A stretch of 17,384 nt of DNA, taken from IMG/VR virus record IMGVR_UViG_2675903433_000036, positions 1-17,384 of that record. One strand, given 5' to 3'. The DNA is from a virus (Duplodnaviria > Heunggongvirae > Uroviricota > Caudoviricetes). How positions within the stretch are numbered: position 1 is the stretch's first letter; each line of letters begins with the position of its first letter. The notes under the pieces are model-generated. The model was not told where the DNA came from, ran no database searches, and saw only the letters and a program-made list of their open reading frames with translations. Below, piece after piece: positions 488 through 17,384 of this stretch. A program made the position numbers and the translations under genes.

Positions 488-497
488 TCCATAAGAA

Positions 498-829: not shown

Positions 830-863
830 GGGAGCAGAATAATAACGGTCCGTAATTAATTCC

Positions 864-892: not shown

Positions 893-975
893 CTGGTAAA
901 GTTCATGCGCTTGGTTCGCCTCGCGATACAGCTTTGCGAAGCGTACCGGAATTGAAGCAGTTTATGCGTAAAAAA

Positions 976-1805: not shown

Positions 1806-2404
1806 TACGCAAACTCCAGTAGCTGCGCGGCCACATTTTCGACTTCCTCCGGAGAGGAAAATTTACGGAACAGGATCCAGTTCCACAGCACATTCAGTAC
1901 AGATTTATAAACCTGCTGAAACACGGTTTCGTCCATGTTCGCAAATGCGATAGATTTTGCCCTGCGCCCACGACTACCGTCCGGATAAAAATGCTCGGTG
2001 TAAAATCCGGCCTGAATGGTTACCCACTCGCGGAAAGCCTCAAACGACTTTAGCAATGCCGTATCCCGGGTTCTGCGTGTCGCAACGGTATTCAGATATT
2101 GCTCTGCGGCATCACTCAGGGCTGGAGTATGTTCCCGACCTACTGACTCGCACAGGTAATCAACGAATTCTGAAACCAGTTTTCGTTCTCGAGGCGTGAT
2201 CGCCCCACCGACCGGAGTCCAGTAATCGAATCCCAGTTGCAGGAGTTTGAAAAAACGCTTGTGGAATGCGTAGTTACGAACGCGCTTAAAATCAGCGTGT
2301 ATCCACTCGCCTATTTTGATTTGATGCAGAAAATCACAACTCTCCGGTGTCGCCGGGAGAAGTAAACCAGAAGAAGTTTGTTTGACCAGTTGTATATGCG
2401 CCAT
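1805..2404 (-). CDS. nin-region protein of unknown function (DUF1367/YbcN-like, tentative)
   Basis: 199 aa from ATG at 2404..2402 (MAHIQLVKQTSSG...) with SD GGAG 8 nt upstream. The ORF-track start at 2416 is a TTG without SD. Confidence 0.55.
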   Translation of the reverse strand: MAHIQLVKQTSSGLLLPATPESCDFLHQIKIGEWIHADFKRVRNYAFHKRFFKLLQLGFDYWTPVGGAITPRERKLVSEFVDYLCESVGREHTPALSDAAEQYLNTVATRRTRDTALLKSFEAFREWVTIQAGFYTEHFYPDGSRGRRAKSIAFANMDETVFQQVYKSVLNVLWNWILFRKFSSPEEVENVAAQLLEFA

Positions 2405-2460
2405 TGCTATCTCCAATGGCGCTGTAGGTTGCCAGTTGTTCAGGCTGGCTTACGAATTAT

Positions 2461-2637
2461 AACTCATTCCCGAACCACCTTGAAACCGAGCCTTTCCAGG
2501 TATTCAATGAATGCCTCGATAGATAAAATCACATGATCATCAGGAATTAACGTTGTGTAGATAACGTCTCCATTCTCAACGCGCACAGCATAGAGGCCAT
2601 TTTCACTAAAAATTTCACGCAATTCTTCGATTTTCAT
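2461..2637 (-). CDS. small hypothetical protein (58 aa)
   Basis: ATG at 2637..2635 with SD GGAAGGA upstream; MKIEELREIFSENGLYAVRVENGDVIYTTLIPDDHVILSIEAFIEYLERLGFKVVRE, stop TGA. Not in the ORF track. Confidence 0.4.
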
Positions 2638-2794
2638 CAACAGAATCCTTCCAGATAAATAGCACTCCCCTGTTCGGGGTCCATCCCTCTTCTCCCTGCG
2701 CGCTAATTAAGTGAATCGATTCTAGTCAGGCATACCAGCTAATCAACAAACCCTGGTCGGTTAAATAGAAGGATTGGCTAAAATTTACCCCCAT

Positions 2795-2822
2795 TAAAAT
2801 AAAAAACCCGCCGAAGCGGGTT
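2795..2822 (-). terminator. Rho-independent terminator of the hok transcript
   Basis: CCCGC-CGAA-GCGGG hairpin (2807-2820); on the minus strand it is followed by TTTTTTATTTTA. Lies about 70 nt downstream of the hok stop. Confidence 0.55.
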
Positions 2823-2890
2823 AAGTGCGGGTGCGTTGAGGATGCCTGACACATCAGAGGTGGCGAGGGATTTCTCCCCCGCCTGGTCTC

Positions 2891-3046
2891 TTACTCCTCA
2901 GGTTCGTAAGCTGTGAAGACAGCGACCTCCGTCTGGCCGGTTCGGATTCGTACCTCGCAGAGGTCTTTCCTCGTTACCAGTGCCGTCACTATGACGGTTA
3001 AACAGATGACGATCAGGGCGACTAACATCGCCTTTTGCTGCTTCAT
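2891..3046 (-). CDS. hokD: Hok/Gef-family membrane toxin (type I toxin), HokD/RelF-like
   Basis: 51 aa, MKQQKAMLVALIVICLTVIVTALVTRKDLCEVRIRTGQTEVAVFTAYEPEE: single TM helix plus the conserved C-terminal hok motif, nearly identical to my recollection of RelF/HokD. SD AAGGAG 9 nt upstream of ATG at 3046. The 70-aa ORF-track version is an in-frame upstream extension. Confidence 0.85.
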   Translation of the reverse strand: MKQQKAMLVALIVICLTVIVTALVTRKDLCEVRIRTGQTEVAVFTAYEPEE

Positions 3047-3225
3047 AGCCTGCTTCTCCTTGCCTTTCGGCACGTAAGAGGCTAACCTACGTTTGTGAAG
3101 CATAGATTGGGCCTCAGATTAATGTTAAGCGTCTTGCAGGACGCGTAATGTTAACTGGGGCTTTTCTCTATCTGCCTTTTGGTGTTCATGCCTGAGGCAG
3201 ATAGCCTCAAGCACCCATTATGATT

Positions 3226-4347
3226 TTAACCAAAGTCTTTGTATCTATAAAGAGGCACAATATTACTCGATATATCATCATGTGTGCGCCTTATTCCAAA
3301 CATTTTGGAAACAAAGCGTTCCCTCACTCCCGACATATCCAGTATCTGCTTCCAAGAAGATATATCCAGCAATTCAACTGCACAGGAAAGTAAGCGAGGT
3401 TTTTCCTCAGGGATTAACTCATCCCCCATCTCTCCTTTAATCGTCCCTCTTTTATTTAGATGGATAAATCCCGTTCTCATTTGTTGTGGCGTAATCAGCC
3501 CCAAAACCGTAGCACGATAAATACACATGCGAAGACTGATTTTCCATCGTTCTTTGAAATTAATTAGTGCATTCCAGTCAAGATGCGATCCTCGCATTTT
3601 AGGAAATTCATTAACGAACGAAACTCTAGGTACAAGGAATGCGCTCGAAAAATAATCCGCATGATGTTCTGTAATTTTATCCCCTGTTATAATCCCTTCA
3701 TGCAAAACAAGATGCCCCAGTTCATGACCGAGATCTGAGCGAAATCGACACACACTCTTTTTCGCGGAATTTCTAATTATCAATGGGCGTTTACTATTAA
3801 TAGTAAACGCATCAATACGATCATCCACGCCAGATACATGAGCAACAACAACCCCAATACTTTCCACGAAATTAACCATTGAAGATATCGGTCCCAGCCC
3901 CAAACCCCAATACCTTCTACAGGCCTCGGCAATTCTTTCAATATCTTCATCGGAGTTCAAAGGTAATCCGGACGTATCAGGAAAGTTCAATTCTGGAAGA
4001 ACTATTTCTGTTTCCAAACACTTTACAAACTGCTCCAAAATTTCAGCTCGAGCCAGAATACTATTAGTTAAGGACTGCGTCCTTGATCTCTTGCTTCTGA
4101 AATGGCAGTTCTCGCTGTCTAATGGTGATTTCCTTCCAGTGAAGAAAAACGACTCTTTAACATCCAGATAATCTGCAAGAGCTGTCAACATCTGAGATGA
4201 AGGGGGATAACCACGCTCTAACTTGTTTATAAATTGCCGAGTCACCCCCAAAGCAGTAGCAAGCTCTTCGCCCGTAACCCCTTTAGCCTGACGAGCTAAT
4301 TTTAAGCAGTCACCACGATAATTACCTATAGAATCAAATAGTTCCAT
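3226..4347 (-). CDS. HTH_XRE DNA-binding domain fused to ImmA/IrrE-type (COG2856, HExxH) zinc metallopeptidase, with a C-terminal domain of unknown function
   Basis: N-terminal XRE helix-turn-helix (LKLARQAKGVTGEELATALGVTRQFINKLERG), a central HELGH zinc-binding motif (SDLGHELGHLVLHEG) and about 150 further residues. Start is uncertain (ATG 4347 or 4374, GTG 4383), none with a strong SD; the frame overlaps the upstream gene by 14-50 nt. GC about 37-40 percent against about 48-52 percent in the flanks. Confidence 0.75.
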   Translation of the reverse strand: MELFDSIGNYRGDCLKLARQAKGVTGEELATALGVTRQFINKLERGYPPSSQMLTALADYLDVKESFFFTGRKSPLDSENCHFRSKRSRTQSLTNSILARAEILEQFVKCLETEIVLPELNFPDTSGLPLNSDEDIERIAEACRRYWGLGLGPISSMVNFVESIGVVVAHVSGVDDRIDAFTINSKRPLIIRNSAKKSVCRFRSDLGHELGHLVLHEGIITGDKITEHHADYFSSAFLVPRVSFVNEFPKMRGSHLDWNALINFKERWKISLRMCIYRATVLGLITPQQMRTGFIHLNKRGTIKGEMGDELIPEEKPRLLSCAVELLDISSWKQILDMSGVRERFVSKMFGIRRTHDDISSNIVPLYRYKDFG

Positions 4348-4984
4348 ATTTATCACTATCTGCTTTTTTCGCATTCTTAACACGCCGCTGCAAATTCAGC
4401 GGTGGTGTTTCCACGGCCTCTGGCAATACGTCAGTATTAGCTGCTTGTACTGGAGCATGGACTTTAGACACCAATTCGTATCTACTCACTACATTATTTG
4501 ATGAATCAAAACCTATCAGGGCTAAAAGCCACGTTGGAGGTTCAATATCTTCATCTTTTTTATTTGCAGATGGTAATTTTTCAGCCAGAACACGCCATGT
4601 AACATCATGTTCAAAATTAACATCATCTTCAAAAAGAGATAACTGACGACACTCAACATCATTTTTACATAAGCGATGTTTCTTTTTTGGTGAATCCAGT
4701 TTATCGGTCACAAACTGTAACGGCACCCTGTTCAGGGTAAACACAAAATTCAGAGGTGTTGAAAGAATCGCCACTCCTTTGAGTTTTTTATGATTTTTTA
4801 CAAGAAAGTTTTTTATCCATCCATAGGCCCTACATCCATTAATCCAGTTATCATCATACTCATGGCGATGGAACCATAATTCGCCAAGTACGTTAGCAAA
4901 TTGCTGAAGAAGATTGATAACAGATTTTTCATCCAAACAAGGATTGATTTCAAAACACGGTTGGAGATTCTGTTCAGACGGCAT
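4334..4984 (-). CDS. hypothetical protein (216 aa), first gene of the AT-rich two-gene cassette
   Basis: ATG at 4984..4982 with SD AGGGA about 7 nt upstream (MPSEQNLQPCFEINPCLDEK...); the ORF-track start at 5026 is a TTG. No motif recognised. AT-rich like its partner. Confidence 0.65.
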   Translation of the reverse strand: MPSEQNLQPCFEINPCLDEKSVINLLQQFANVLGELWFHRHEYDDNWINGCRAYGWIKNFLVKNHKKLKGVAILSTPLNFVFTLNRVPLQFVTDKLDSPKKKHRLCKNDVECRQLSLFEDDVNFEHDVTWRVLAEKLPSANKKDEDIEPPTWLLALIGFDSSNNVVSRYELVSKVHAPVQAANTDVLPEAVETPPLNLQRRVKNAKKADSDKYGTI

Positions 4985-5138
4985 AAGGTATCCCTCTCTC
5001 TTAAAACTCCGCTCATCTTTACGCAAAATTTTATTTTTGTAAACCTAATCTTTAGGGGATTTCACGAATTCGTCAACCAGTCGAACAAACTTTAACCACA
5101 ATACATATTTATCTACATTGATATGTGTATCGCTAACA

Positions 5139-5369
5139 CTATTGTGGGCATTCAGCTAGTATTACCAAGCCTTCAGGTGCGCGAAGTTGTTCCGCACAGT
5201 GCAGCAGCGCATCAGTCGCTTCCTTAAGCGTCACAGTGTCGCCATCACCCAGTCCTGCAATTTTTGCGTGCCTGACAAACGCCGCGCAAAGGTCGTTAAA
5301 CGCCCCTGCCCGCACATCCGCCAGGAAAGCGTTGGCAGCAGCCAAATCCTGGTAGTCAATCCCGCTCAC
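5139..5369 (-). CDS. hypothetical small phage protein (76 aa)
   Basis: GTG start at 5369 with a strong SD (AGGAGGTG) and a GTGA overlap with the upstream stop; MSGIDYQDLAAANAFLADVRAG... Confidence 0.5.
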   Translation of the reverse strand: MSGIDYQDLAAANAFLADVRAGAFNDLCAAFVRHAKIAGLGDGDTVTLKEATDALLHCAEQLRAPEGLVILAECPQ

Positions 5370-5788
5370 TGTGCCACCTCCTGAAAATTACCCTGATAAA
5401 ACGCCAGTGCGCGCTGCATAACTTCGCTCTTCCGGCACTCGCTACAGATTATGTTCTGACGCCTGTCGTAGCGGCGTATTTCTCCGTCTGGTAATGACCA
5501 GATAAGGTCCGGATCATCCACAGATGTTTTCTTCAGATTTGCCCTTGAGAGTTTTTTGCGGGCGTTTTGCCAGTCCTTACGCGCCTGTTCAGACGGGAAT
5601 AACCCGTAACCAGAGTTGTATACATCGCCACTGGCAACCAGCTCTCTGGCGAGAACACTCATCAGATATCTTGTCGCACCTGTTTTCTCTTCCAGTTGCC
5701 GTAACGTCTCGCGGCCGCTCAGACGTACAAGTTCAACAACCTGCCCTTTAATTTTTTCCCGCTCTTCTGGTGTAAATACTTTTGCCAT
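5366..5788 (-). CDS. hypothetical phage protein (140 aa)
   Basis: ATG at 5788..5786 with SD GGAGG 7 nt upstream (MAKVFTPEEREKIKGQ...). The ORF-track start at 5803 is a TTG abutting the upstream stop. Confidence 0.55.
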   Translation of the reverse strand: MAKVFTPEEREKIKGQVVELVRLSGRETLRQLEEKTGATRYLMSVLARELVASGDVYNSGYGLFPSEQARKDWQNARKKLSRANLKKTSVDDPDLIWSLPDGEIRRYDRRQNIICSECRKSEVMQRALAFYQGNFQEVAQ

Positions 5789-5803
5789 GGGCGCCTCCGG
5801 CAA

Positions 5804-6574
5804 TCACTTTTCCGATGCAACACGGCGGGAAAAATCAGTAATCTGTCGAACAATATCCCGATGCTTGTTCAGCTCCCGCAGCGCGGCGCAGACACGCTCC
5901 CACTTCTGGACATGATTTTTCGCCCGACGCAGTTCACGGTTTGCCATATGCAGCGATGACAAAATCAAATCATCAGATCGCGTTGCAGTAAACGATGGCA
6001 GCGACTGCACAATGTCCGCCACAGTTTCTGTTTTAATATCTTCCTGTGTTGCAGCCTCCTGTACTGGTAACGCAACACATGCAGGCTGAGGAAAGGCTTT
6101 ACCATCAGTTTCCGCTACCGATGCTGCTTTCGGCTCTGCTGGTAAATTATCGCCCGGTATGCAGTAACGAAATTTACCGTTCTGATTAACGCGTGCCAGC
6201 CGCCCCGTTGCGGTTACCACCGCCAGCGTGGAAGCAACCTTGCGAGTACTGACGCCGAACTTACCCGCCAGTTCCTCACACGTTTTAGCACCATCCTGAC
6301 CGATAAACTCAACCATCATGTCTGCGGTAACTTTTGGAGCGACCTCTTCGGTTACCACATCCGGCGCTTCAGGTTGTAGTGCCTGCCCTTCGGTTACCCC
6401 GGCTTCACCTTCGACAGCCAGAAACCAGGTGTGACCCGTTTTATCAACAACGCCATTTTTTTTGAGTTCCCACAGTTCGTTAAGAACTTCTTCACGGCTG
6501 ATATCAAGCCGCGCCGCCAGTTCAACAGAATTGGCTTTTCCCATCGCTTTCAGTGCATGCAATACAGTTTCCAT
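5804..6574 (-). CDS. hypothetical phage protein with two winged-helix-like segments (DUF1627-like, tentative)
   Basis: 256 aa with SD GAGGT upstream. Two similar segments ([28 protein letters not shown] and [27 protein letters not shown]) and a basic, possibly coiled C-terminus. Confidence 0.55.
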
Positions 6575-6599
6575 CGAAAATTTACCTCGTCAAAAATTC

Positions 6600-7340
6600 T
6601 CACATACCCTGACGTCCAACGTTTGACCGCCAGCTCTCCCAGTTAAAATTCACCCAACGCCCGCCGTTCATGGTCATGCGATCCATAATCCTCTCGCCGA
6701 GCAATGTTTTCATGGCCTCATAGCTCAGGTTTGTCAGCATCCCCACGCTGCGCATCGACGCTGTCCGGCGATCAACAATCTGGTGCAGCACCACCTGCTC
6801 GTTTTTTGTCTCGCGCTGAATGCCAATTTCATCAAGAACCAGCAGATCCACTTGGCACAGTTCCCGCAAAAATTTTTCGCCTGATTGCCCGTCGTCATAG
6901 CTGGCGTGTAGAGCACTCATGACATCAGCCACGGTAACCACAATCACTGTCTGGCCATCTTTTAGCAGGCGATTCCCGATAGCCGCCGCCAGATGGTTTT
7001 TTCCGGTACCAGGTTTTCCGCTGAACGCAAAATTTGTATACCCGGTCATCAGTTCATCGGCGATGGATTTCGCCTGGCTTAACGCGTATCGCTGGCCGTC
7101 GTTCTGCACCTGGTAATTCGCAAACGAGCATTTACGGTGCAACGGCTGGATGCCAGAGCGATTCAGAATTTTTTCCACCCGCAACTGACGATTCAGGCGG
7201 TTGATCTCCTCGCAACGTTTCTGTCCTTCAGCAAGTTGCCACTCACGCCACTCCGCAACCGTTCTGAATGGGGCGGTTACATGTGGTGGGGTCAGTCTGC
7301 GGATACGCTCCAGAACGCCGCCTGTCGCAATATTTTTCAT
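6600..7340 (-). CDS. ydaV: DnaC/IstB-like AAA+ ATPase, replicative helicase loader (P-like role)
   Basis: Walker A GKPGTGKNHLAAAIG and Walker B LLVLDEIG; 246 aa, directly downstream of the O-like gene. Symbol from recalled Rac synteny and length. Confidence 0.8.
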   Translation of the reverse strand: MKNIATGGVLERIRRLTPPHVTAPFRTVAEWREWQLAEGQKRCEEINRLNRQLRVEKILNRSGIQPLHRKCSFANYQVQNDGQRYALSQAKSIADELMTGYTNFAFSGKPGTGKNHLAAAIGNRLLKDGQTVIVVTVADVMSALHASYDDGQSGEKFLRELCQVDLLVLDEIGIQRETKNEQVVLHQIVDRRTASMRSVGMLTNLSYEAMKTLLGERIMDRMTMNGGRWVNFNWESWRSNVGRQGM

Positions 7341-7346
7341 GGTCTG

Positions 7347-8204
7347 TTACCCCCTGAAGCCTGGCGGGATCGCACTATCCGGTAGCGAAACGGTGTTAAC
7401 CTGTCGGAGTAACGTCTCAGGTCGAACACCTTTCGGCGCGAACAGGCCCTGGTATTCATTGGCGATACTGTGTCGAATCACCTGCTCGGGTGTAAAACCC
7501 TGCTGGCGGAATTTTTCCAGCTCCCGTATCGCCCCGTTAGCGCCCTGCTCCGTTCGAATCGGTTTTCGCAATGCCTGGCGAAATTCAACCCACTCACGCC
7601 AAAGCGAGACAGAAATCCAGTTCGGCAAAGCAATATCCAGAGGGTCAAACTTTTTGACACCTCGATTCCCCCGGGGGGGATTTAGGGGGGGATCTGTTTT
7701 TAGATCTTTATCTGTATCTTTATTAGTTGCCTTTGTGTTGACATCATGTTCAAACACCACTTCAACATCTGTTTGAACACCTGTTAAATTTCTCTCTTGT
7801 TTTTTTTGAACATCTGCTTCCTTTCTGCTTCTTCTGGCCTGAACAGATGCTTTTCCTGCGGCTGATTTTTTGGTTAATTTTTCCCTGACTGATGCCAGAT
7901 CTTCCTCAATCCGAAGATGCACCCATTCCTCGCCGTTATCGCAAAAAAACTCCTGCAAGGATGGTTCAACATCAGCCCATCGCTCGTTAGTCAGACGGGC
8001 AATTTTTGCCAGTCTGTTTTTAGGTATTGGCTTTCCTGTTTGCCAGTAATTGAACATCAGCAACAAATACGCACCATGCTCCTCTGCTGACAAATGCATG
8101 GTGTCAGCCAAGTAATCAGCTATGTACAGTTGCATGTATGGTAATGCGGCCATAATTGCCCCGTATGATGCTGCCCGGTGGCTTAGAATAAGCACAAACA
8201 GCAT
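7347..8204 (-). CDS. ydaU: replication initiator, O-like (YdaU/DUF1376-type), containing the candidate origin
   Basis: 285-aa ORF. The start is uncertain: ATG 8204 has no SD, alternatives at 8153 and 8135. A Lys/Glu-rich central linker is encoded by an AT-rich repeat-laden segment. Symbol from recalled Rac length and synteny. Confidence 0.65.
   Translation of the reverse strand: MLFVLILSHRAASYGAIMAALPYMQLYIADYLADTMHLSAEEHGAYLLLMFNYWQTGKPIPKNRLAKIARLTNERWADVEPSLQEFFCDNGEEWVHLRIEEDLASVREKLTKKSAAGKASVQARRSRKEADVQKKQERNLTGVQTDVEVVFEHDVNTKATNKDTDKDLKTDPPLNPPRGNRGVKKFDPLDIALPNWISVSLWREWVEFRQALRKPIRTEQGANGAIRELEKFRQQGFTPEQVIRHSIANEYQGLFAPKGVRPETLLRQVNTVSLPDSAIPPGFRG
7667..7852. repeat. iteron-like direct and inverted repeats plus C5/G7/G7 homopolymer tracts inside the O-like gene; candidate replication origin
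   Basis: CCCCCGGGGGGG at 7668-7679 and GGGGGGG at 7685-7691; palindrome GATCTgtttttAGATC at 7691-7706; ATCTTTAT twice; ATGTTCAAACACC and CTGTTTGAACACC; GAACATCTGCTT and GAACAGATGCTT. Confidence 0.45.
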
Positions 8205-8216
8205 GGAAACTTTTGC

Positions 8217-8639
8217 TTAATGAACAATGACAGAATCTTCGGAAGACCCGCCGCCGCTGAAATGCGCTTTCCGGTAAACGGCCTGGACTGCATCATCATG
8301 CGCATCAATTGCCGTACTCAACGCTTCCTGCGCCGCCAGTAATGCACGGCGTTCCAGGGTATCGAAGATGCAGAGTCGGTGACGCAGCTCGCGCGGAATA
8401 ATTGCCAGAACCGCAGGGATCAGTTTCTGAATTTTTTCCCTTTGCGCTTTCGTTTCACCTTTCAACCAACGGTGATAGATATTCTGCTGATTGTTCCAGT
8501 CCTTGCCTGGTACCAGGGGCAATTCGCCGCCCCCCTGGCGCAGATATTCTTCAGTAATTGCGTTAGCGACCCACGCCTGCCCTTTTTCGGCTGCCAGGGC
8601 TAACAACACTGATTCGATGTGCTCATGCCTGATTTTCAT
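8217..8639 (-). CDS. ydaT: YdaT-like protein (reported toxin partner of YdaS in Rac-type prophages); occupies the cII position
   Basis: 140 aa, SD AGGAG 8 nt upstream of ATG 8639; overlaps the Cro-like gene by 17 nt. Symbol from recalled length and synteny. Confidence 0.6.
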   Translation of the reverse strand: MKIRHEHIESVLLALAAEKGQAWVANAITEEYLRQGGGELPLVPGKDWNNQQNIYHRWLKGETKAQREKIQKLIPAVLAIIPRELRHRLCIFDTLERRALLAAQEALSTAIDAHDDAVQAVYRKAHFSGGGSSEDSVIVH

Positions 8640-8898
8640 GAATCAACTCCTGTGCATTTGGTGTGTTAGCCTTACATCCAACAGGTAAACCATCGGTCGG
8701 ATTCGGGTAGATATCAGGCCGGAGTTCATGAGGTGTAACCTCGAAATTCGTTACTTCAGCAACACGTAATGCTTTTTCAGGGCTGAATCTTTCATAGCCC
8801 CCCAGCACTCGACTTACATGCACCTGAGATAAACCCGTTAGCTTCCCAAACTGTAACTGGGTGATATGTTTCTCTTTTAAATAGTCTCTTAAGTTCAT
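8623..8898 (-). CDS. ydaS: Cro-like HTH regulator (YdaS-type)
   Basis: MNLRDYLKEKHITQLQFGKLTGLSQVHVSRVLGG is an HTH. ATG at 8898 with SD GAAGG; first gene of the rightward operon, divergent from the repressor. The ORF-track TTG start at 8904 is less likely. Confidence 0.65.
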   Translation of the reverse strand: MNLRDYLKEKHITQLQFGKLTGLSQVHVSRVLGGYERFSPEKALRVAEVTNFEVTPHELRPDIYPNPTDGLPVGCKANTPNAQELIHENQA

Positions 8899-8928
8899 AG
8901 CCAACCTTCTACGTTATGCCTCGAACAA

Positions 8929-8957
8929 ATATTAGCTCCACTAATTTTAAAGATCAA
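8929..8957 (-). promoter_or_regulatory. pR-like sigma70 promoter for the Cro-like operon
   Basis: Minus strand reads TTGATC (-35), a 17-nt spacer, then TAATAT (-10); predicted TSS near 8921, about 24 nt before the ATG at 8898. Confidence 0.5.
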
Positions 8958-8971
8958 CAGTCAGACTATCT

Positions 8972-8999
8972 TTGATAATATTGGTAAAACAAATAAACT
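8972..8999 (+). promoter_or_regulatory. possible pRM-like promoter giving a leaderless or near-leaderless repressor mRNA
   Basis: TTGATA (8972-8977), 16-nt spacer, TAAACT (8994-8999), ATG at 9006 with no SD, as for lambda cI from pRM. Confidence 0.3.
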
Positions 9000-9005
9000 C
9001 TATGT

Positions 9006-9467
9006 ATGAAAAAAACACGCGAAGTGATTGCAACTCCAGAAGCGAGCAAGAATTTAAAAGCCGCATGGAATGCAAGAAAAAAAGAGCTGAAGCTGACTCA
9101 AGAGCTGGCGGCTGAGTTGTTGGGATTCGAATCTCAAGGCACCGTTAGCCAGTATCTGAACGGCAAGATACCGGTAAATACCGACGCTGCGCTAAAATTT
9201 GCGGCTCTGTTAAAGGTAAAACCAGAGGACATTCGAGAAGACCTTAAAGACTTAATGAATTATGTAAGATCATCAGATACTTATGATGATAGCTTTTCAG
9301 GCAAAGGATGGAGGCTGGTCAATGAAGAACAGGCAGAGTTACTTAACCTCTTCGAGATTCTACCTGCGTCAGAAAAAGCCAAACTCCTTAACCAGCTACG
9401 TGGACTAAACAAGCTCTATGAGGAAGCCTTCGAGAACATGCTGGCACTAAAGAAACGTAACCAGTAG
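9006..9467 (+). CDS. racR: prophage repressor, XRE-family HTH, non-LexA-like (RacR-like)
   Basis: 153 aa; HTH LTQELAAELLGFESQGTVSQYLNGK; no peptidase S24 domain. Divergent from the Cro-like gene and followed by a terminator. Symbol is by analogy. Confidence 0.6.
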   Translation: MKKTREVIATPEASKNLKAAWNARKKELKLTQELAAELLGFESQGTVSQYLNGKIPVNTDAALKFAALLKVKPEDIREDLKDLMNYVRSSDTYDDSFSGKGWRLVNEEQAELLNLFEILPASEKAKLLNQLRGLNKLYEEAFENMLALKKRNQ

Positions 9468-9493
9468 CCACCACTCACTACCCTATCCACAAC

Positions 9494-9523
9494 AAAAAAA
9501 CCGACGTCTTAGTCGGTTTTTTT
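9494..9523 (+). terminator. Rho-independent terminator after the repressor gene (A-tract / hairpin / T-tract, potentially bidirectional)
   Basis: AAAAAAA-CCGAC-GTCTTA-GTCGG-TTTTTTT. Confidence 0.6.
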
Positions 9524-9548
9524 GTGCCATAACTTCTGCAAATCAGCT

Positions 9549-9649
9549 GTGTAACTAATATTTTTCCCTTGAAAAAACATTTACATAGTTACTAAATCAA
9601 AAGCATCATACTCCATACTGTTGACTTAAAATATCCGTGTTACTAATAT
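9549..9649 (+). promoter_or_regulatory. strong pL-like promoter with three copies of a GT(T/A)ACTAAT operator-like motif
   Basis: -35 TTGACT (9621-9626), 17-nt spacer, -10 TAATAT (9644-9649). Motif copies: GTGTAACTAATAT (9549-9561), GTTACTAAAT (9588-9597), GTGTTACTAATAT (9637-9649, overlapping the -10). Confidence 0.55.
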
Positions 9650-9720
9650 CCTCATCAAGAACAGCACGGCGCTGTAGGTTTTAGTTCCGCCACCCGGCGT
9701 TAAGGGGAAATGAGGTCAAC

Positions 9721-9873
9721 ATGGATACTATCGATCTTGGCAACAACGAATCTCTGGTATGTGGCGTGTTTCCCAATCAGGACGGCACATTCACCGCCAT
9801 GACGTATACCAAAAGCAAATCGTTTAAAACCGAAGCTGGCGCACGTCGCTGGCTTGCCAAAAATACCAGCTAA
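9721..9873 (+). CDS. small early-left protein (50 aa; YdaF/YdaG-like by position)
   Basis: SD GAGGT 6 nt upstream of ATG 9721; MDTIDLGNNESLVCGVFPNQDGTFTAMTYTKSKSFKTEAGARRWLAKNTS. Not in the ORF track. Confidence 0.55.
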   Translation: MDTIDLGNNESLVCGVFPNQDGTFTAMTYTKSKSFKTEAGARRWLAKNTS

Positions 9874-10070
9874 ACAATTTATTGGATTAATTCAATATTC
9901 TTGCTGTAGGGGTATAGCCGAGGCCACCAAAGCCCGGAGGTGGTGAAATAAAACCGGGCACAACACGAAGGCGCATTTCCGATATCCATAAAGAGTCGGT
10001 CTTGTCTGTTAAATTTAAATGGTGGGAGTGCGCCTCCGGTTGTAAATAACGACATTGCTGTGTGTAGTCT

Positions 10071-10115
10071 TGGCGGCATCAGTTCTACTCCGTGGCTGCC
10101 CTGCCGCCCCTTTTT
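10071..10115 (+). terminator. terminator-like long-loop hairpin (tL1-like) within a 400-bp structured leader
   Basis: GGCGGCA (10071-10077) pairs with TGCCGCC (10103-10109), followed by CCTTTTTAAAG. Confidence 0.3.
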
Positions 10116-10578
10116 AAAGTGAATTTTGTGATGCGGTGAATGCGGCTGAGCGCACGCGGCACAGTTAAAAGCATCAGTGTTATGGGTGGATTATCCGGCG
10201 TTAATTGTTAACTGGTTAACGTCACCTGGAGGCACCAGGCACCGCATCAACAAAGTTCACTTCAGTGATGAAAGGTGAGAGAAAATGATGGATGTAGCTA
10301 TTGAAAACCAGAACGGGTGGAATTATAGTGCACCTGCACCTCATAAAACGGGTGCCGGGATTTGCACCCCGATGATCACTAGAGCGCATAACCGCGCCAA
10401 AGCGTTTTTTTTATGCGTAAAGCGCAGCCACATTCAGATTATGGTGGGGCGTATGGGGCCGTTTTCGGGCGGGCCGGATTCTCTAGTGACCGGTAGTGCA
10501 AACCCTGTACGTCTCACCACCCATGAGATTTGCACCTCCGGTGGTGAGTTTACCAACTTATCACTAGAGGCTGCCATC

Positions 10579-11133
10579 ATGGCTACTATCCCTACCCTTT
10601 CTCACCCTGACGTAACCATCGAAAATGGTCGTGCTGTCACTACGTCTGTTGCAGTTGCAGAGTTTTTCCGCAAGCTGCATAAAAACGTCATTCAAAAAAT
10701 TGAAGCTCTGGAATGTTCCTCAGAATTCACTGAGCTTAATTTTAAGCCAAGTGAATACACCGACTCAACCGGGCGCAAACTCCCAATGTACCAAATCACC
10801 AAAAACGGCTTCGTTTTCCTGGTGATGGGTTTCACTGGCAAAAAAGCCGCTGCATTCAAAGAGGCCTACATCGCTGAGTTCGACCGCATGGAAGCAGAGC
10901 TACGCCAGAATAATACCACTCCCACAAACAAAATCATTCCGGGCGATGGGCGCACTCTGGTTGTTCGCTTCGACAAATTCGGCAACGTCGAATTCACTGA
11001 AACCGTTCCTGATGGCGCTCTCGTCTGTACCCTGGACACTTTCCGCCTTTATCTGGAGAAACAGGGCTGGACTCTTGTAAACCGAAGCGCAATTAAAAAT
11101 ATGACCGTCGAGCAGTTGCTGAGTATTAAATAG
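10579..11133 (+). CDS. Rha-family phage regulatory protein (Phage_pRha domain)
   Basis: Matches my recollection of the Rha domain: AVTTSVAVAEFFRKLHKNVIQKIEAL...ELNFKPSEYTDSTGRKLPMYQITKNGFVFLVMGFTGKKAAAFKEAYIAEFDRMEA. Internal ATG 10579 with SD AGAGG is preferred; the ORF-track start at 10285 adds about 98 compositionally odd, repeat-containing residues. Confidence 0.65.
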   Translation: MATIPTLSHPDVTIENGRAVTTSVAVAEFFRKLHKNVIQKIEALECSSEFTELNFKPSEYTDSTGRKLPMYQITKNGFVFLVMGFTGKKAAAFKEAYIAEFDRMEAELRQNNTTPTNKIIPGDGRTLVVRFDKFGNVEFTETVPDGALVCTLDTFRLYLEKQGWTLVNRSAIKNMTVEQLLSIK

Positions 11134-11179
11134 TTTTCTGGAATTTTCTTAATACGAGAAATTTATTAAGGAGATAATT

Positions 11180-11401
11180 ATGATTGCTCATCACTTCGGA
11201 ACTGATGAAATACCACGTCAGTGTGTGACTCCTGGCGATTATGTTCTTCATGAAGGTCGGACATATATCGCCTCGGCAAACAATATTAAAAAGCGAAAAC
11301 TTTATATTCGTAGCCTGACTACAAAAACATGCATTTCTGACTGCATGATTAAAGTCTTCCTCGGCCGTGATGGTTTACCTGTAAAGGCGGAGTCATGGTA
11401 A
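11180..11401 (+). CDS. kilR: KilR-like small protein (host-killing / cell-division inhibitor of Rac-type prophages)
   Basis: 73 aa with strong SD AAGGAG. Symbol from recalled Rac length and position. Confidence 0.5.
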
Positions 11402-11571
11402 TGACTAAGAAAATGAAATGTGCTTATCACCTTTGCAATAAAGAAATTGAAGAAAGCAAAATCATTACAAGACCACTTCATTTCATGCGTGGAGTTATAC
11501 CAACGACGGAAATGAAAAAATATTGTAGTGAAATCTGTGCCGAAAAAGACCAGATGGCACACGAACTTTAA
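11401..11571 (+). CDS. ydaE: small zinc-finger-like protein (YdaE-like)
   Basis: 56 aa, ATG overlapping the upstream TAA (TAATG); [56 protein letters not shown] with a CxxHxC...CxxxC pattern. Not in the ORF track. Confidence 0.5.
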   Translation: MTKKMKCAYHLCNKEIEESKIITRPLHFMRGVIPTTEMKKYCSEICAEKDQMAHEL

Positions 11572-11651
11572 TTAACTGACTATTCGAAACTGAATTTATG
11601 CCAGCAATGGCAGGGGTTCGCTCAACCTTAAAATAGTTATGAGGTTTATCA

Positions 11652-13682
11652 ATGAGTACTGATAAAGAAAATTACGCTCTGTATTGCGACGCGAAAAATG
11701 ATAAAACCAGAAAACGCCTCGGCATCAAAGGCGGCTTTTTCTGGACAGAGGCAAAAAAACTTTCTGTTGCGGTTTTACGCTGCATTGCTGCAATGGACGA
11801 TGCCGGATTTGACGAAGAGGATTTTAAAAAACCCATCCGCGTCCATTTACCCGTTGTGAATGACCTTCCACCGGAAGGTGTGTTTGATACTGAATTCTGC
11901 AACCGATACGAAAAAGGCGGAGAAGATGGTATCACAATGATACTTATCGCGCCCTCTCCCTCCGTGCAGGAGAAACCAGCCAGTACTGACAATACCAACG
12001 TCAACGGCGAAGACATGACGGAGATTGAGGAGAATATGCTCCTGCCGGTTTCTGGTCAGGAGCTGCCCATTCGCTGGCTTGCGCAACACGGCAGCGAAAA
12101 ACCAGTAACGCACGTTGCACGGGAAGAACTTCAGGCATTACATATAGCACGGGCGGAAGAACTGCCGGCTGTTACTGCCCTGGCCATTTCTCACAAAACA
12201 AAGCTGCTCGACCCGCTGGAGATTCGCGACCTTCACAAACTGGTACGCGACACTGACAAAGTTTTCCCTAATCCCGGTAATTCAGACCTGGGACTGATAA
12301 CTGCTTTTTTCGAGGCATACCTGGACGCTGACTACACTGATCGGGGTCTGCTGACAAAAGAGTGGATGAAAGGAAATCGTGTTTCGCGTATCACCCGTAC
12401 GGCTTCCGGTGCAAATGCCGGTGGCGGGAACAAAACCGATCGCAATCCGAATTTAGTACACACCTTCGATACGCTGGATGTGGAGATTGCAGCAGCCACA
12501 CTTCTGATGGATTTTAATATTTATGAAATTCCGGGCAGCGTTTATCGTCGCGCAAAAGAAATCGTCCTGAAAAGAGAAAGTCCGTTCAAAGAATGGTCCG
12601 CAGCACTTCGCGCAACCCCGGGTATTCTGGACTATTCCCGCGCCGCTATTTTTGCACTTATCCGGAGCGCTCACCCTGAGTTTTATCACTACCCGGGACG
12701 CCTTCAGGGGTATATCAACGCCTACTTAACGGAGACTGATCACGAGAACCCCAGCAAGGAAACTCTCACTGCTGCACGACATACACCGGAAAAAGATATC
12801 CTGGAAGAGGTTAACCGCGAACTGGCTGCTAAGCAGGAAACAGAAGAAGAAAATGATGAAGAAAAACCGCAACCATCTTGCGCAATGGCAGATGAACAGG
12901 CAACGGCTGAAACAGTGGAACCGGATGCAACTGAACATCATCAGGACACGCAGCCGCTGGATGCTCAGTCACAGGTAAATTCTGTTGATGCGAAATATCA
13001 GAAACTGCGGGCAGAACTCCATGAAGCCCGGAAAACCATTCCGCCCAAAAATCCTGTCGATGCCGACAAATTGCTGACTGCCTCTCGCGGAGAATTTGTT
13101 GAAGGGATTAGCGACCCGAATGATCCGAAATGGGTTAAGGGAATTGAAACCCGAGATTCTGTGAACCAGAACCAGCCCGAATCGGAACAAAACAACCAGA
13201 AAGCGGAACAAAACAGCCCAAATGCACAGAAAAACGAGCCAGAAACGAAACAATCTGAACCAGTAGCGCAACAGGAACCGGAAAAAGTCTGTGCCGCCTG
13301 CGGTCAGAGCGGCGGCGGCAACTGCCCTGATTGTGGCGCGGTGATGGGCGACACCACGTATCTGGAAACCTTTAATGAAGAAAATCAGAATGAATATCAG
13401 GAAAAAGGTCTGGAGGAAATGGAAGGTGCTGAACATCCGCACAAGGAGAACGATGGCAGCGATCCGCATCGCGATTGCAGTGATGAAACTGGCGAAGCAG
13501 CAGCTTCATCATTAGAAAAACTCGACTGGAAAAGACAAGTGGTGATTGCAGCGGTTTACGGTTTATGTGCAAATCCTGCGGGTATAGCCTCAGCGCCATT
13601 AATTCCGGGTATTGCAATGATGATTGCAAACAAACTTGAAAATTTTGGGGTGACGGATGATGAGTACATGCCCAATTTTTGA
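11652..13682 (+). CDS. large acidic protein of unknown function upstream of the Red genes (zinc-ribbon motif; possibly related to the RecE N-terminal region)
   Basis: 676 aa with SD GAGGT. Long Asp/Glu/Gln-rich low-complexity stretches, a [16 protein letters not shown] zinc ribbon and a hydrophobic C-terminal segment ([33 protein letters not shown]). Sits where racC-recE lie in Rac. No nuclease motif recognised. Confidence 0.7.
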
Positions 13683-13956
13683 TCGCATTGAAGAGCAGGC
13701 ATGGTCACGCCACTACCAGCAAATCGTTTGCGAAGAAAAAGAAACGGCGCTGGCGGACGACCTGGAAAAAGGTCTGCCCCAGCACCTGTTTGAATCGCTC
13801 TGCATCGACCATTTGCAACGCCACGGTGCCAGCAAACAGGCAATCAGTCGCGCATTTGATGACGATGTTGAATTTCAGGAACGTGTGGCGGAGCACATCC
13901 GGTACATGGTTGAAACCATTGCTCGTCACCAGGTTGATATTGATTCAGAGGTATAA
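13657..13956 (+). CDS. gam: Gam, host RecBCD nuclease inhibitor (lambda GamS-like)
   Basis: 99 aa, near-identical over most of its length to recalled lambda Gam (…RHYQQ…[24 protein letters not shown]…[12 protein letters not shown]…[12 protein letters not shown]…HQVDIDSEV). Confidence 0.9.
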
Positions 13957-13961
13957 AACGA

Positions 13962-14747
13962 ATGAGTACAGCACTTGCAACACTGGCCGGGAAGCTGGCT
14001 GAACGCGTCGGCATGGATTCTGTCGACCCACAGGAACTGATCACCACTCTTCGCCAGACGGCATTTAAAGGTGATGCCAGCGATGCGCAGTTCATCGCAT
14101 TGCTGATCGTCGCCAACCAGTACGGCCTTAATCCGTGGACGAAAGAAATTTACGCCTTCCCTGACAAGCAGAACGGCATCGTTCCGGTGGTGGGCGTTGA
14201 TGGCTGGTCCCGCATCATAAATGAAAACCAGCAGTTTGATGGCATGGACTTTGAGCAGGACAATGAATCATGTACATGCCGGATTTACCGCAAGGACCGT
14301 AATCATCCGATCTGCGTTACCGAGTGGATGGATGAGTGCCGTCGCGAACCATTCAAAACCCGAGAAGGCAAAGAAATCATCGGACCATGGCAGTCGCATC
14401 CCAAACGGATGTTACGGCATAAAGCCATGATTCAGTGTGCCCGTCTGGCCTTCGGATTTGCTGGTATCTATGACAAGGATGAAGCCGAGCGCATTGTCGA
14501 AAATACCGCATGCACTGCAGAACATCAGCCGGAACGCGACATCACTCCGGTTAACGATGAAACCATGCAGGAGATTAACACTCTGCTGATCTCCCTGGAT
14601 AAAACATGGGATGACGACTTATTGCCGCTCTGTTCCCAGATATTTCGCCGCGACATTCATGCATTGTCAGAACTGAAACAGGCCGAAGCAGTGAAAGCTC
14701 TTGGATTCCTGAAACAGAAAGCCGCAGAGCAGAAGGTGGCAATATGA
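13962..14747 (+). CDS. bet: Bet (Red-beta) single-strand annealing protein
   Basis: 261 aa, near-identical to recalled lambda Bet ([89 protein letters not shown]...). Confidence 0.92.
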
Positions 14748-15424
14748 CACCGGACATTATCCTGCAGCGTACCGGGATCGACGTGAGAGCTATCGTACAG
14801 GGGGATGATGCGTGGCACAAATTACGGCTCGGCGTCATCACAGCTTCAGAAGTTCACAACGTGATAGCAAAACCCCGCTCCGGAAAGAAATGGCCTGACA
14901 TGAAAATGTCCTACTTCCACACCCTGCTTGCCGAGGTTTGCACCGGTGTGGCTACGGAAGTTAACGCTAAGGCGCTGGCCTGGGGAAAACAGTACGAGAA
15001 CGACGCCAGAACCCTGTTTGAGTTCACTTCCGGCGTGAATGTTACTGAATCCCCGATCATCTATCGTGACGAGACTATGCGCACCGCCTGCTCTCCAGAT
15101 GGTTTATGCAATGACGGCAACGGCCTTGAGCTGAAATGCCCGTTCACCTCCCGGGATTTCATGAAGTTCCGGCTCGGTGGTTTCGAGGCCATAAAGTCGG
15201 CTTACATGGCCCAGGTGCAGTACAGCATGTGGGTGACGCAAAAAGATGCCTGGTACTTTGCCAACTATGACCCGCGTATGAAGCGTGAAGGCCTGCATTA
15301 TGTCGTGGTTGAGCGGGATGAAAAGTACATGGCGAGTTTTGACGAGATGGTGCCAGAATTCATCGAAAAAATGGACGAGGCACTGGCTGAAATTGGTTTT
15401 GCATTTGGGGAACAATGGAAATGA
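14744..15424 (+). CDS. exo: Exo (Red-alpha) 5'-3' dsDNA exonuclease
   Basis: 226 aa, near-identical to recalled lambda Exo ([16 protein letters not shown]...[36 protein letters not shown]...); ATGA overlap with bet. Confidence 0.92.
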
Positions 15425-15651
15425 GCGCAGCCATAAAGCTCACAGGAGAAAAACCAGTGCTATACACAAAAGTCAAACCATGTCCGTTTTGTGGTTGTCC
15501 ATCAGTAACGGTGAAAGCCATTTCAGGATATTACCGCGCAAAGTGTAACGGATGCGAATCCCGAACTGGCTATAGTGGAAGTGAAAAAGAAGCACTCGAA
15601 AGATGGAATAAACGAACTACTGGAAATAATAATGGAGGTGTTCATGTATAA
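15415..15651 (+). CDS. ralR: Lar/RalR-like restriction-alleviation protein (zinc-ribbon, CPFCG motif)
   Basis: [47 protein letters not shown] matches my recollection of the Lar family. Start at 15415 or 15421, the latter overlapping the exo stop. Confidence 0.5.
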
Positions 15652-15853
15652 AATTACTGTCACTATTGAAAAGGAAGGTGGCACTCCTACTAACTGGACA
15701 AGATATTCAAAATCTAAATTAACGAAATCAGAATGCGAAAAAATGCTCTCTGGGAAAAAAGAAGCAGGCGTTTCCAGAGAGCAGAAAGTAAAACTGATAA
15801 ATTTTAATTGCGAGAAACTTCAGTCCTCGAGAATTGCATTGTATTCAAATTAA
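15644..15853 (+). CDS. ydaC: small hypothetical protein (YdaC-like, 69 aa)
   Basis: ATG 15644 preceded by GGAGGTG; [35 protein letters not shown]... AT-rich. The ORF-track 92-aa version begins upstream in the overlap with the Lar-like gene. Confidence 0.45.
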   Translation: MYKITVTIEKEGGTPTNWTRYSKSKLTKSECEKMLSGKKEAGVSREQKVKLINFNCEKLQSSRIALYSN

Positions 15854-15931
15854 AACTTCATAGCTGATTATTAATAATCAACATCGGGCGTCAATTTCAG
15901 TCTAACATTGGCGCCTGCCAGAGGTGATGCG

Positions 15932-16147
15932 ATGGCAAAAGTAATCTTTAATGAAGAGTGGATGGTTGAATACGGCCTGATGCTTCGCACTGGTCTGGGG
16001 GCCAGACAAATTGAAGCATACCGCCAGAACTGTTGGGTGGAGGGCTTCCACTTCAAACGAGTATCTCCTTTAGGTAAGCCAGACAGCAAACGAGGGATTA
16101 TCTGGTACAACTATCCAAAGATAAATCAGTTTATCAAAGACTCATGA
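15932..16147 (+). CDS. xis: excisionase (Xis-like)
   Basis: 71 aa directly upstream of the integrase, with the stop 1 nt before the int ATG; SD GAGGTGA 4-5 nt before ATG 15932. Confidence 0.7.
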
Positions 16148-16148
16148 T

Positions 16149-17384
16149 ATGTCTAAATTACCAACAGGTGTCGAGATTAGAGGTAGATACATTCGCATCT
16201 GGTTCATGTTTCGAGGAAAACGATGTCGGGAAACATTAAAAGGCTGGGAGATTACAAACAGTAATATTAAAAAGGCCGGAAATTTAAGAGCGCTGATAGT
16301 TCATGAAATAAACTCCGGTGAATTTGAGTATTTAAGACGTTTTCCCCAGTCCAGCACTGGGGCAAAAATGGTGACAACGAGAGTCATAAAAACGTTCGGA
16401 GAGCTTTGTGATATCTGGACAAAAATTAAAGAGACAGAGTTAACAACAAACACAATGAAGAAAACAAAATCACAATTAAAAACACTCAGAATAATAATTT
16501 GTGAAAGTACCCCGATATCACATATTCGTTATAGCGATATCTTAAACTACCGGAATGAACTGCTGCATGGAGAAACGCTTTACCTGGATAATCCAAGATC
16601 CAACAAAAAAGGAAGAACCGTGCGCACAGTTGATAACTATATCGCCCTGCTCTGTTCGCTGTTGCGTTTTGCGTATCAGTCGGGATTTATATCAACCAAA
16701 CCATTTGAAGGAGTAAAAAAATTACAGCGAAACAGAATAAAGCCTGATCCGTTATCTAAAACAGAATTCAATGCATTAATGGAAAGTGAAAAAGGACAGA
16801 GCCAGAACTTGTGGAAATTTGCCGTTTACTCAGGACTTCGTCACGGGGAACTGGCAGCTCTGGCGTGGGAGGATGTGGATCTCGAAAAGGGAATAGTGAA
16901 TGTCAGAAGAAACCTGACGATACTTGATATGTTCGGTCCCCCAAAAACAAATGCCGGGATCCGGACAGTAACACTACTGCAGCCTGCTCTTGAAGCACTG
17001 AAGGAGCAATACAAACTGACCGGGCATCATCGCAAAAGCGAAATCACCTTTTACCATCGGGAGTACGGCAGAACCGAAAAGCAAAAACTGCATTTTGTTT
17101 TCATGCCCAGGGTGTGTAACGGAAAACAAAAACCTTATTACTCGGTAAGCAGTTTGGGGGCAAGGTGGAATGCAGCAGTAAAACGTGCTGGTATTCGCCG
17201 TCGTAATCCGTACCATACGCGGCATACTTTTGCCTGCTGGCTGTTGACGGCAGGAGCGAACCCGGCATTTATAGCCAGCCAAATGGGGCATGAAACTGCG
17301 CAGATGGTGTATGAAATTTACGGTATGTGGATTGATGACATGAACGACGAACAGATAGCCATGTTGAATGCGCGGTTATCGTAG
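16149..17384 (+). CDS. int: tyrosine site-specific integrase (phage integrase family)
   Basis: 411 aa; C-terminal catalytic region with R...HxxR...Y spacing (NPYHTRHTFACWLL...GHETAQMVYEIYGMW). AT-rich, terminal position; the stop codon is the last triplet of the window. Confidence 0.9.
   Translation: MSKLPTGVEIRGRYIRIWFMFRGKRCRETLKGWEITNSNIKKAGNLRALIVHEINSGEFEYLRRFPQSSTGAKMVTTRVIKTFGELCDIWTKIKETELTTNTMKKTKSQLKTLRIIICESTPISHIRYSDILNYRNELLHGETLYLDNPRSNKKGRTVRTVDNYIALLCSLLRFAYQSGFISTKPFEGVKKLQRNRIKPDPLSKTEFNALMESEKGQSQNLWKFAVYSGLRHGELAALAWEDVDLEKGIVNVRRNLTILDMFGPPKTNAGIRTVTLLQPALEALKEQYKLTGHHRKSEITFYHREYGRTEKQKLHFVFMPRVCNGKQKPYYSVSSLGARWNAAVKRAGIRRRNPYHTRHTFACWLLTAGANPAFIASQMGHETAQMVYEIYGMWIDDMNDEQIAMLNARLS

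Follow-up and report, generated by a model that had tools for sequence, protein, structure and literature searches.

How a prophage laid out like Rac came to carry recombination genes of the lambda type is the question raised by the stretch of viral DNA analyzed here, namely positions 1 to 17,384 of the IMG/VR record IMGVR_UViG_2675903433_000036 (Caudoviricetes; 17,384 nucleotides (nt), hereafter the window), in which the feature under study spans 8217-17384. The window is very probably the early region of one Rac-family lambdoid prophage, located in the 5' end of Escherichia coli ttcA, whose homologous-recombination cassette has been exchanged. Identities were obtained by blastn for nucleotides and by protein alignment, and the blastn segment map was drawn against K-12 Rac, phage Rac-SA53, lambda and Qin. 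Whole-element alignment to Rac, lambda and Qin, put forward as a check in an earlier first-pass annotation of this DNA, returned a Rac-type backbone with lambda-type gam-bet-exo, the segments being as follows.

6116-8645: K-12 Rac, 90%
7698-9708: Rac-SA53, 96.7%, with K-12 similarity absent over the immunity region
9899-10262: Rac and Qin (DicF region), 87-94%
10263-11169: no match in K-12 Rac, Rac-SA53, lambda or Qin
11170-11631: Rac-SA53 96%, K-12 90%
11990-13505: recE similarity, patchy
13681-15432: lambda, 93.7%
15446/15469-17384: Rac-SA53 95.8%, K-12 99.0%

The proposed exchanged cassette and the genes that it involves are listed below, with protein identities to lambda where these apply.

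13504-15445, plus strand: swapped cassette, comprising the tail-coding end of the open reading frame (ORF) for a RecE N-terminal region (RecE-N), gam, bet and exo
11652-13682, plus strand: RecE-N ORF of 676 amino acids (aa), with PF06630 (E=3.7e-34) as its sole Pfam domain
13657-13956, plus strand: gam, PF06064, 79.6% identical to lambda Gam
13962-14747, plus strand: bet, PF03837 (RecT/Redbeta family), 96.9% identical to lambda Bet
14744-15424, plus strand: exo, PF09588 (YqaJ/lambda exonuclease family), 95.1% identical to lambda Exo

Gam, Bet and Exo are encoded contiguously, being the same three genes in the same order as lambda Red and with the same bet/exo overlap. In the alignment to lambda Exo, D119, E129 and K131, which we take to be its catalytic residues in lambda numbering, are all kept at the same positions. 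The first-pass annotation had described the Red proteins as near-identical to those of lambda, which holds for Bet and Exo but not for Gam. It had also placed lambda gam-bet-exo in the stead of recET; recT and the RecE nuclease domain are indeed missing, but about 617 N-terminal residues of RecE are retained, in a 676-aa ORF that it did not mention. Compared to lambda, the 5' neighbor of gam is different, being the RecE-N ORF that overlaps gam by 26 nt, and the lambda neighbors N, cIII, kil, ea10 and ral were not found in the window by tblastn. By its sequence, the cassette, including the tail-gam junction, resembles certain Shiga toxin (Stx)/lambdoid phages and not lambda itself.

The joints of the cassette lie at 13503/13504 on the left and within 15433-15445 on the right, as defined against L021, the closest recE-recT relative, which was used as the reference for the swap. 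By blastn, identity to L021 is 95.4% on the left flank (11598-13503) and 99.2% on the right one (15469-17384), and between these matching flanks there are 1.96 kb in the window versus a different cassette of 1.71 kb in L021. At the left joint, the Rac-type recE homology ends at 13503-13505, and the tail-gam homology to phages 75/02 Stx, POCJ13, phiSTEC1589-Stx1c and PhiR5_2 begins at 13521 (blastn), the recE reading frame being kept open and the joint falling at the conserved linker described below. Phage phiSTEC1589-Stx1c is colinear across this joint (12855-15418 at 83.9%) and encodes the same tail. On the right side, the lambda homology stops at 15432, 8 nt past the exo stop codon, and similarity to Rac-SA53 picks up again at 15446, where the Shine-Dalgarno sequence of ralR lies, so that the joint falls within the 13 bp separating the exo stop codon from the ralR ribosome-binding site. 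These boundaries point to a clean cassette replacement with homologous arms, and the donor type would be a lambdoid phage already carrying RecE-N with the tail, gam, bet and exo.

The RecE-N protein at the left joint aligns to residues 50-587 of K-12 RecE, where the alignment stops, and it is 92% identical overall to the 897-aa RecE protein P0007 (94% in the best local alignment, over 91% of the query). Neither Pfam nor the alignment finds in the 676-aa ORF a PF12684-type PD-(D/E)XK nuclease domain, which in K-12 RecE lies at about 564/606-866, and no meaningful match to solved structures came from a sequence search of the PDB; PADLOC gave no defense-system match for this protein. Instead of the nuclease, there is a hydrophobic tail from about residue 618, common to the proteins of E. 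coli M8, the IGC strains described below and the Stx1c phage, and to the Stx 'exoVIII' ORFs. Database search and alignment distinguish three forms of RecE-N, which share about 617 N-terminal residues at 90-94% identity in the best local alignment and all part directly after a conserved DETGE(A/V/T)A linker, read as DETGEAA in the window, at about residue 617.

Form 1, 897 aa: PF12684 nuclease (canonical RecE), represented by P0007, which is encoded in L021, a recE-recT-ralR-DUF1187-xisR-intR-ttcA prophage
Form 2, 819-820 aa: PF16473 Rv2179c-like 3'-5' exonuclease, followed directly by an excisionase and an integrase, without an annealase gene
Form 3, 670-677 aa: hydrophobic tail, as in the window, followed by gam-bet-exo

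Prophages with the 820-aa form adjoin ompW where the flank is visible. All three forms are called exonucleases by the database labels; for the 676-aa ORF, the label 'exodeoxyribonuclease' is unsupported, because Pfam, the RecE alignment and the PDB search show no nuclease domain. A protein scan of genome contigs, taking one genome per species, gave 7 loci at 64-82% identity to the 676-aa protein. A 2023 review treats the N-terminal part of RecE as a domain whose function is not known (PMC11611040). Tentatively, and going by sequence, this region could be an autonomous and portable unit with a nuclease-independent function, and the linker a preferred joint for cassette exchange, although this reading is held with less than even confidence. 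If so, RecE-N would have a function apart from the attached nuclease, such as end tethering, localization or counter-defense. The stand-alone RecE-N, with three alternative cassettes at one linker, is of some wider interest as a natural way to approach the function of this domain. A non-exhaustive literature search found no paper on RecE-N as a portable unit with three alternative ends, and on 'exodeoxyribonuclease VIII' with gam, bet and exo nothing specific to the nuclease-less form.

The same arrangement is seen in relatives of the window. In the closed and PGAP-annotated E. coli genomes IGC_EcoliInv_1.1 and IGC_RcoliRes_1.1, the genes ydaV-ydaU-ydaT-ydaS-like, repressor, ydaF, Rha, nuclease-less RecE-family, Gam, Bet, Exo, RalR, DUF1187, XisR, IntR and ttcA follow as in the window, of which the prophage covers 88% at 94.6% nt identity. 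Its repressor is 100%, its Bet and Exo 99% and its IntR 99.8% identical; it differs in the Rha module (76% at the protein level) and the RecE-N protein (73%), and it carries racC and a longer YdaE-family gene replacing kilR and ydaE. These strains come from the study of KingRac (Frazao et al. 2019, PMC6731689), a lambdoid prophage related to Rac that can be induced and produces particles, and the ttcA locus of the IGC genomes is presumably KingRac itself. Recombination of KingRac with other prophages has been seen experimentally in the mouse gut, the shared module being listed as recE, recT, gam and a recombinase (bioRxiv 10.64898/2026.05.27.728231).

K-12 Rac and Rac-SA53 (KU052037) share with the window the integration module, the ttcA attachment (att) core, ralR/ralA, rcbA, kilR, ydaE, ydaF and ydaT/U/V, and the immunity region of Rac-SA53 is identical to that of the window. 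However, both have a full recE (866 or 1048 aa), recT and racC, and neither has gam-bet-exo or the isrK-C4-Rha insert described below; K-12 Rac also differs by RacR/YdaS immunity, sieB and ydaG. The phages phiSTEC1589-Stx1c and PhiR5_2 and the Shigella phages 75/02 Stx and POCJ13 carry the same four-gene unit, with a nuclease-less RecE-N bearing the hydrophobic tail, at about 77-84% nt identity and 49% protein identity for the RecE-N ORF, but with other integrases, N-type antitermination and different immunity. E. coli M8 repeats the immunity, kilR and Red block of the window but pairs it with another integrase, located beside yebY, and with replication genes of the lambda P type. Of 5426 complete E. 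coli genomes, 16 contain the exo-ralR junction. The Red-type Rac is a minority variant of a very common prophage, already sequenced, annotated (RefSeq) and explained by ordinary lambdoid mosaicism; module exchange between lambdoid prophages is textbook knowledge, and the significance of the locus is mainly that of correct annotation.

Regarding the mode of exchange, a segment for the RecE nuclease domain and RecT would have been replaced by a segment for the tail, Gam, Bet and Exo, leaving a nuclease-less RecE-N. Homologous recombination between co-resident lambdoid phages or prophages, inside the shared recE-N sequence, would be the most likely route, because the unit of RecE-N with the tail, gam, bet and exo occurs in some Stx/lambdoid phages. 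By analogy with lambda, the repressor, which has only a helix-turn-helix (HTH) domain, would keep both divergent early operons silent in the lysogen. Once the prophage is induced, the rightward operon would express Gam, blocking RecBCD, Exo, resecting 5'-3', and Bet, annealing strands; the YdaS-like protein and YdaT may act as analogues of Cro and CII, and YdaU/YdaV may replicate the genome, again as judged from lambda.

Several points weigh against this account of the locus. An N-like antiterminator was not found in the window and there are terminator-like hairpins after the DicF and isrK RNAs, so that transcription from the early promoter reaching the Red genes is presumed. Identity between Gam and its lambda counterpart is just 80%. 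The window begins at a contig end and shows only half of the prophage, and the late half is placed on other contigs because window position 1 is the first base of the matching draft contig CYGC01000014.1. Finally, an exchange in either direction, from recET to Red or the reverse, would be compatible with these data.

Concerning the direction, the alternative that survives best, although it is unlikely, is that the Red-type arrangement is the older one in this lineage, the cassette being ancestral and the recE-recT prophages derived. RecE-N is joined at one linker to three ends (PF12684, PF16473 and the tail), so that no form is obviously ancestral, and the tail form is carried by Stx phages. 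On the other hand, full contiguity from exo to the right end is found in 7 of the approximately 4470 complete E. coli genomes having the Rac right end (intR), and the flanks share 95-99% identity with a recET prophage, suggesting a recent event in a mainly recET background. Much less probable is the view of two elements, with a lambda-like prophage or remnant in or beside a Rac prophage in place of one exchanged module. The confinement of the lambda nt homology to the sharply bounded block 13681-15432 would fit it; but the foreign block has just about 1.96 kb, without an integrase, an att site, repeats or lambda N, cIII, kil, ral and ea10, it takes the position and orientation of recE(C-terminus)-recT in relatives with colinear flanks, and the left joint preserves the ORF. 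An assembly artefact joining Rac-like and lambda/Stx-like prophage reads through shared repeats is the least credible of all, since, even though the source contig comes from a draft assembly, the window begins at a contig end and E. coli genomes hold many similar lambdoid prophages (median 3, up to 19 matching places per genome), the identical junction-spanning 676-aa protein is on 9 NCBI contigs, with the same neighbors in the 3 contigs shown, from three different assemblies, both junctions are present in closed complete genomes, and L016 is 99.98% identical over 10.7 kb spanning both joints.

Taken over the whole window, the ORF listing and Pfam give a typical lambdoid early region made of two divergent gene sets. 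From left to right, the minus strand carries a Q-like DUF1133 gene, YbcO, DUF1367, hok/sok, a low-GC two-gene insert, DUF977, DUF1627, ydaV, ydaU, ydaT and a cro/YdaS-like gene; the order on the plus strand is repressor, ydaF, Rha gene, kilR, ydaE, the 676-aa RecE-N ORF, gam, bet, exo, ralR, rcbA/ydaC, xisR and intR. Every gene named in the first-pass annotation is an intact ORF with Pfam and BLAST support. The backbone genes outside the immunity region are as follows, with protein identities.

6600-7340, minus strand: ydaV, IstB/DnaA-type ATPase (Pfam), 93.5% identical to K-12 YdaV
7347-8204, minus strand: ydaU, DUF1376 (Pfam), 98.9% identical to K-12 YdaU
9721-9873, plus strand: ydaF (DUF1391), PF07151, 88% identical to K-12 YdaF and to Qin YdfA
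11180-11401, plus strand: kilR, PHROG Kil family, 94.5% identical to K-12 and 97% to Rac-SA53
11395-11571, plus strand: ydaE, 71% identical to K-12 and 91% to Rac-SA53
15457-15651, plus strand: ralR (Lar), GTG start, PF14354, 92% identical to K-12
15644-15853, plus strand: rcbA/ydaC, PF06688, 98.6% identical to K-12
15932-16147, plus strand: xisR, DUF1233 (Pfam), 98.6% identical to K-12
16149-17384, plus strand: intR, Pfam Arm-DNA-bind_2 and Phage_integrase, 100% identical to K-12

The early-right operon (cro-like gene and ydaT/U/V) and the accessory genes kilR, ydaE, ralR and rcbA are colinear with the Rac order, and these comparisons bear out the Rac-type assignment that had been proposed for YdaT, YdaU, YdaV, KilR, YdaE, Lar and YdaC. 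As for ydaU and ydaV, they had been assigned to 8217-17384 and in fact lie to the left of it. The recE and recT genes are the origin of the name 'rac'; in the window, tblastn found none of racC, sieB, ydaG, recT and the RecE nuclease domain. The spacing between ydaE and the RecE-N ORF is 80 bp (11572-11651), and the ydaE-recE gap is occupied by racC in K-12 Rac, Rac-SA53 and the IGC and M8 prophages.

The integration site could be placed on the contig CYGC01000014.1 (L015, GCA_001283185.1), which is 100% identical to window positions 1652-17384 and whose position 1 corresponds to window position 1. The att core was derived from the 26-bp repeat at both ends (attL/attR) of K-12 Rac and was located on L015, beyond the window: the core, AAGAAAGAACAATACAACCTGAACAA, lies at window-equivalent 17460-17485, 76 bp past intR and within the first codons of ttcA. 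The earlier expectation that the integrase stands at the window edge, with attL just past 17384, was therefore correct. An exact copy of the Rac-SA53 attP 26-mer was not found in L015 or K-12, the core differing at a few bases. Downstream of intR, L015 has ttcA and then the dbpA-zntB locus, the genes in this part being ttcA, dbpA, a CorA-family gene, a PAS-GGDEF gene and an Smr gene, which is the E. coli ttcA neighborhood beside K-12 Rac. The IntR/XisR module with the att core in ttcA is that of the Rac family (IntR type), and attL of Rac has been mapped inside ttcA (PMC4632033).

The immunity region is formed by three genes on the two strands.

8217-8639, minus strand: ydaT, PF06254, 95.7% identical to K-12 YdaT, a CII-like transcription factor
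8623-8904, minus strand: cro-like HTH gene of the YdaS family, PF15943 and HTH_3, with a likely start at 8898 giving 91 aa
9006-9467, plus strand: prophage repressor, HTH_3 as sole domain, without an S24 protease domain

Both the Rac-SA53 'dicA' protein and the protein of the IGC strain match the repressor at 100% identity, and K-12 RacR gives no match to it at E<=10; the Cro-like protein has 99% identity to Rac-SA53 'dicC' and 32% to K-12 YdaS. By these comparisons, the immunity is that of Rac-SA53 and not of the K-12 RacR type, and heteroimmunity to K-12 Rac is predicted for this prophage. Members of the Rac family differ in their immunity type, RacR-type immunity being absent here. The repressor and Cro-like pair, described at first as Rac-type, is so by its position and by its 99-100% match to Rac-SA53, but it is not of the K-12 RacR/YdaS type.

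In K-12, the YdaT-box ATGATTCATGAAAATCAA has been footprinted; it spans the ydaT start codon and activates repressor transcription (PMC11879457). The window has a YdaT-box, TTGATTCATGAAAATCAG, on the coding strand at 8646-8629 (minus), overlapping the ydaT ATG at 8639. It departs from the footprinted K-12 site in its first and last bases, and the remaining 16 of 18 agree. The YdaT-box pattern is not enriched in the window (4 matches vs 1.7 expected; 21 of 200 shuffles reached 4), and among these matches, the one covering the ydaT ATG alone has published footprinting behind it. Another inverted repeat resembling the YdaT-box, CTGATTATTAATAATCAA, is found at 15864-15881 between rcbA and xisR, with 1 mismatch to TTGATT-N6-AATCAA, and K-12 Rac, Rac-SA53 and the IGC prophage all have it unchanged; speculatively, it could be a CII/pI-like control point for xis-int. 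A search of the window for LexA boxes (CTGT-N8-ACAG, up to 1 mismatch) gave 5 versus 5.1 expected, none near promoters, and so no evidence for SOS boxes.

YdaS and YdaT had also been presented as a toxic module. Toxicity on derepression is reported in two 2017 papers (PMC5700373, PMC5700377) and the Pfam families are named YdaS_toxin and YdaT_toxin, but a toxin-antitoxin-like module is quite improbable here and the claim is disputed. The two genes stand where cro and cII would, pointing away from the repressor and preceding the replication genes, and the cro-like gene keeps the YdaS position despite its 32% identity to K-12 YdaS. The YdaT-box over the ydaT start is conserved, the box that in K-12 drives repressor transcription (PMC11879457). 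Moreover, YdaT has been characterized as a DNA-binding activator of the CII kind, equivalent to CII in function (PMC9986795; PMC11879457), and the Jobling critique treats YdaS and YdaT as Cro and CII equivalents (PMC5917428). From position and conservation, YdaS/YdaT would be better read as lysis-lysogeny regulators that are toxic when overexpressed, and the Pfam 'toxin' names are not to be taken as their function.

Between the repressor and kilR, and at the right end, the window holds several RNA genes and an insert that the first-pass annotation had missed.

10059-10109, plus strand: DicF-family small RNA (sRNA) with terminator, Rfam RF00039, 54.7 bits (gathering score 48)
10263-11169, plus strand: insert of 907 bp, absent from K-12 Rac and Rac-SA53 (blastn boundaries)
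10301-10329, plus strand: sigma-70-like promoter-like site, 10/12 match, preceding isrK
10336-10412, plus strand: isrK RNA, Rfam 62 bits (gathering score 50)
10437-10524, plus strand: C4-type antisense RNA, Rfam 78 bits (gathering score 45)
10579 (probable start) to 11133, plus strand: Rha/antirepressor-like gene, PF09669, with Ant-type PHROG matches
15650-15828, minus strand: RalA antitoxin sRNA, Rfam RF02694, 219.6 bits (gathering score 170), antisense to rcbA

The DicF RNA, with a terminator-like site at 10092-10107, is 89% identical at the nt level to the Qin dicF region, and the alignment suggests that it is the positional equivalent of kilS in K-12 Rac. In the insert, the 9-nt loop of C4, CUCUAGUGA, and the adjacent GUGCAAA are complementary to two pairs of sites. 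One pair lies inside isrK (10361-10367 and 10376-10384), and the other lies downstream (10529-10535 and 10561-10569), where 10561-10569 matches the loop and overlaps the Shine-Dalgarno sequence of the ATG at 10579. These pairs are reminiscent of the a1/b1 and a2/b2 sites in immI of phage P1. The layout is that of a C4/IsrK antisense antirepressor module, with isrK and C4 upstream of an antirepressor-like gene and the loop facing the ribosome-binding region, and regulation of this kind is predicted from the sequence. The characterized relative of the isrK-C4-Rha module is the isrK-orf45-anrP locus of Gifsy-1 (PMC4825925).

The annotated 282-aa 'Ash + Rha' ORF (10285-11133) overlaps the isrK and C4 RNA genes. 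Compared with this 282-aa call, a Rha protein of 184 aa with its start at 10579 has more plausibility, and the 282/283-aa call is probably over-extended. The Pfam Phage_ASH match (aa 14-108 of the 282-aa ORF; 10285-10608) coincides with the isrK and C4 genes; either translated RNA genes account for part of this family or the region is dual-coding. PADLOC gave no defense-system match for Rha. The repressor has no S24 domain and no LexA boxes were detected; an antirepressor route to induction through the Rha/Ant-like protein may reasonably be proposed. At the right end, ralR with RalA antisense to rcbA, arranged as K-12 ralA, has the layout of the RalR/RalA type I toxin-antitoxin system.

Other features lie to the left of 8217. 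An STnc100 sRNA is found at 487-677 (minus strand, Rfam 138 bits), followed by a partial tRNA-like Rfam match at 764-823 (minus strand, 37 bits, model positions 7-64). ARAGORN detected no tRNA genes in the window, and the match is probably a tRNA remnant, because related prophages carry 2-4 intact tRNA genes there, downstream of the Q-like gene. At 2891-3216 (minus strand) there is a type I toxin-antitoxin locus, hok/sok, made up of a Hok/Gef ORF (2891-3103) and a sok RNA (3041-3216, Rfam 120 bits), and this locus is 86% identical to the Qin hokD region. Beside it, a low-GC (0.40-0.42) two-gene insert at 3226-5026 (minus strand) matches the Rosmer anti-phage defense system in PADLOC, through a 385-aa HTH and M78 peptidase protein matching RmrA (E=6e-107) and a 230-aa protein matching RmrT (E=2e-18). 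This insert, which is present in the IGC strains as well, looks like a defense cargo cassette in the early-right region of the prophage.

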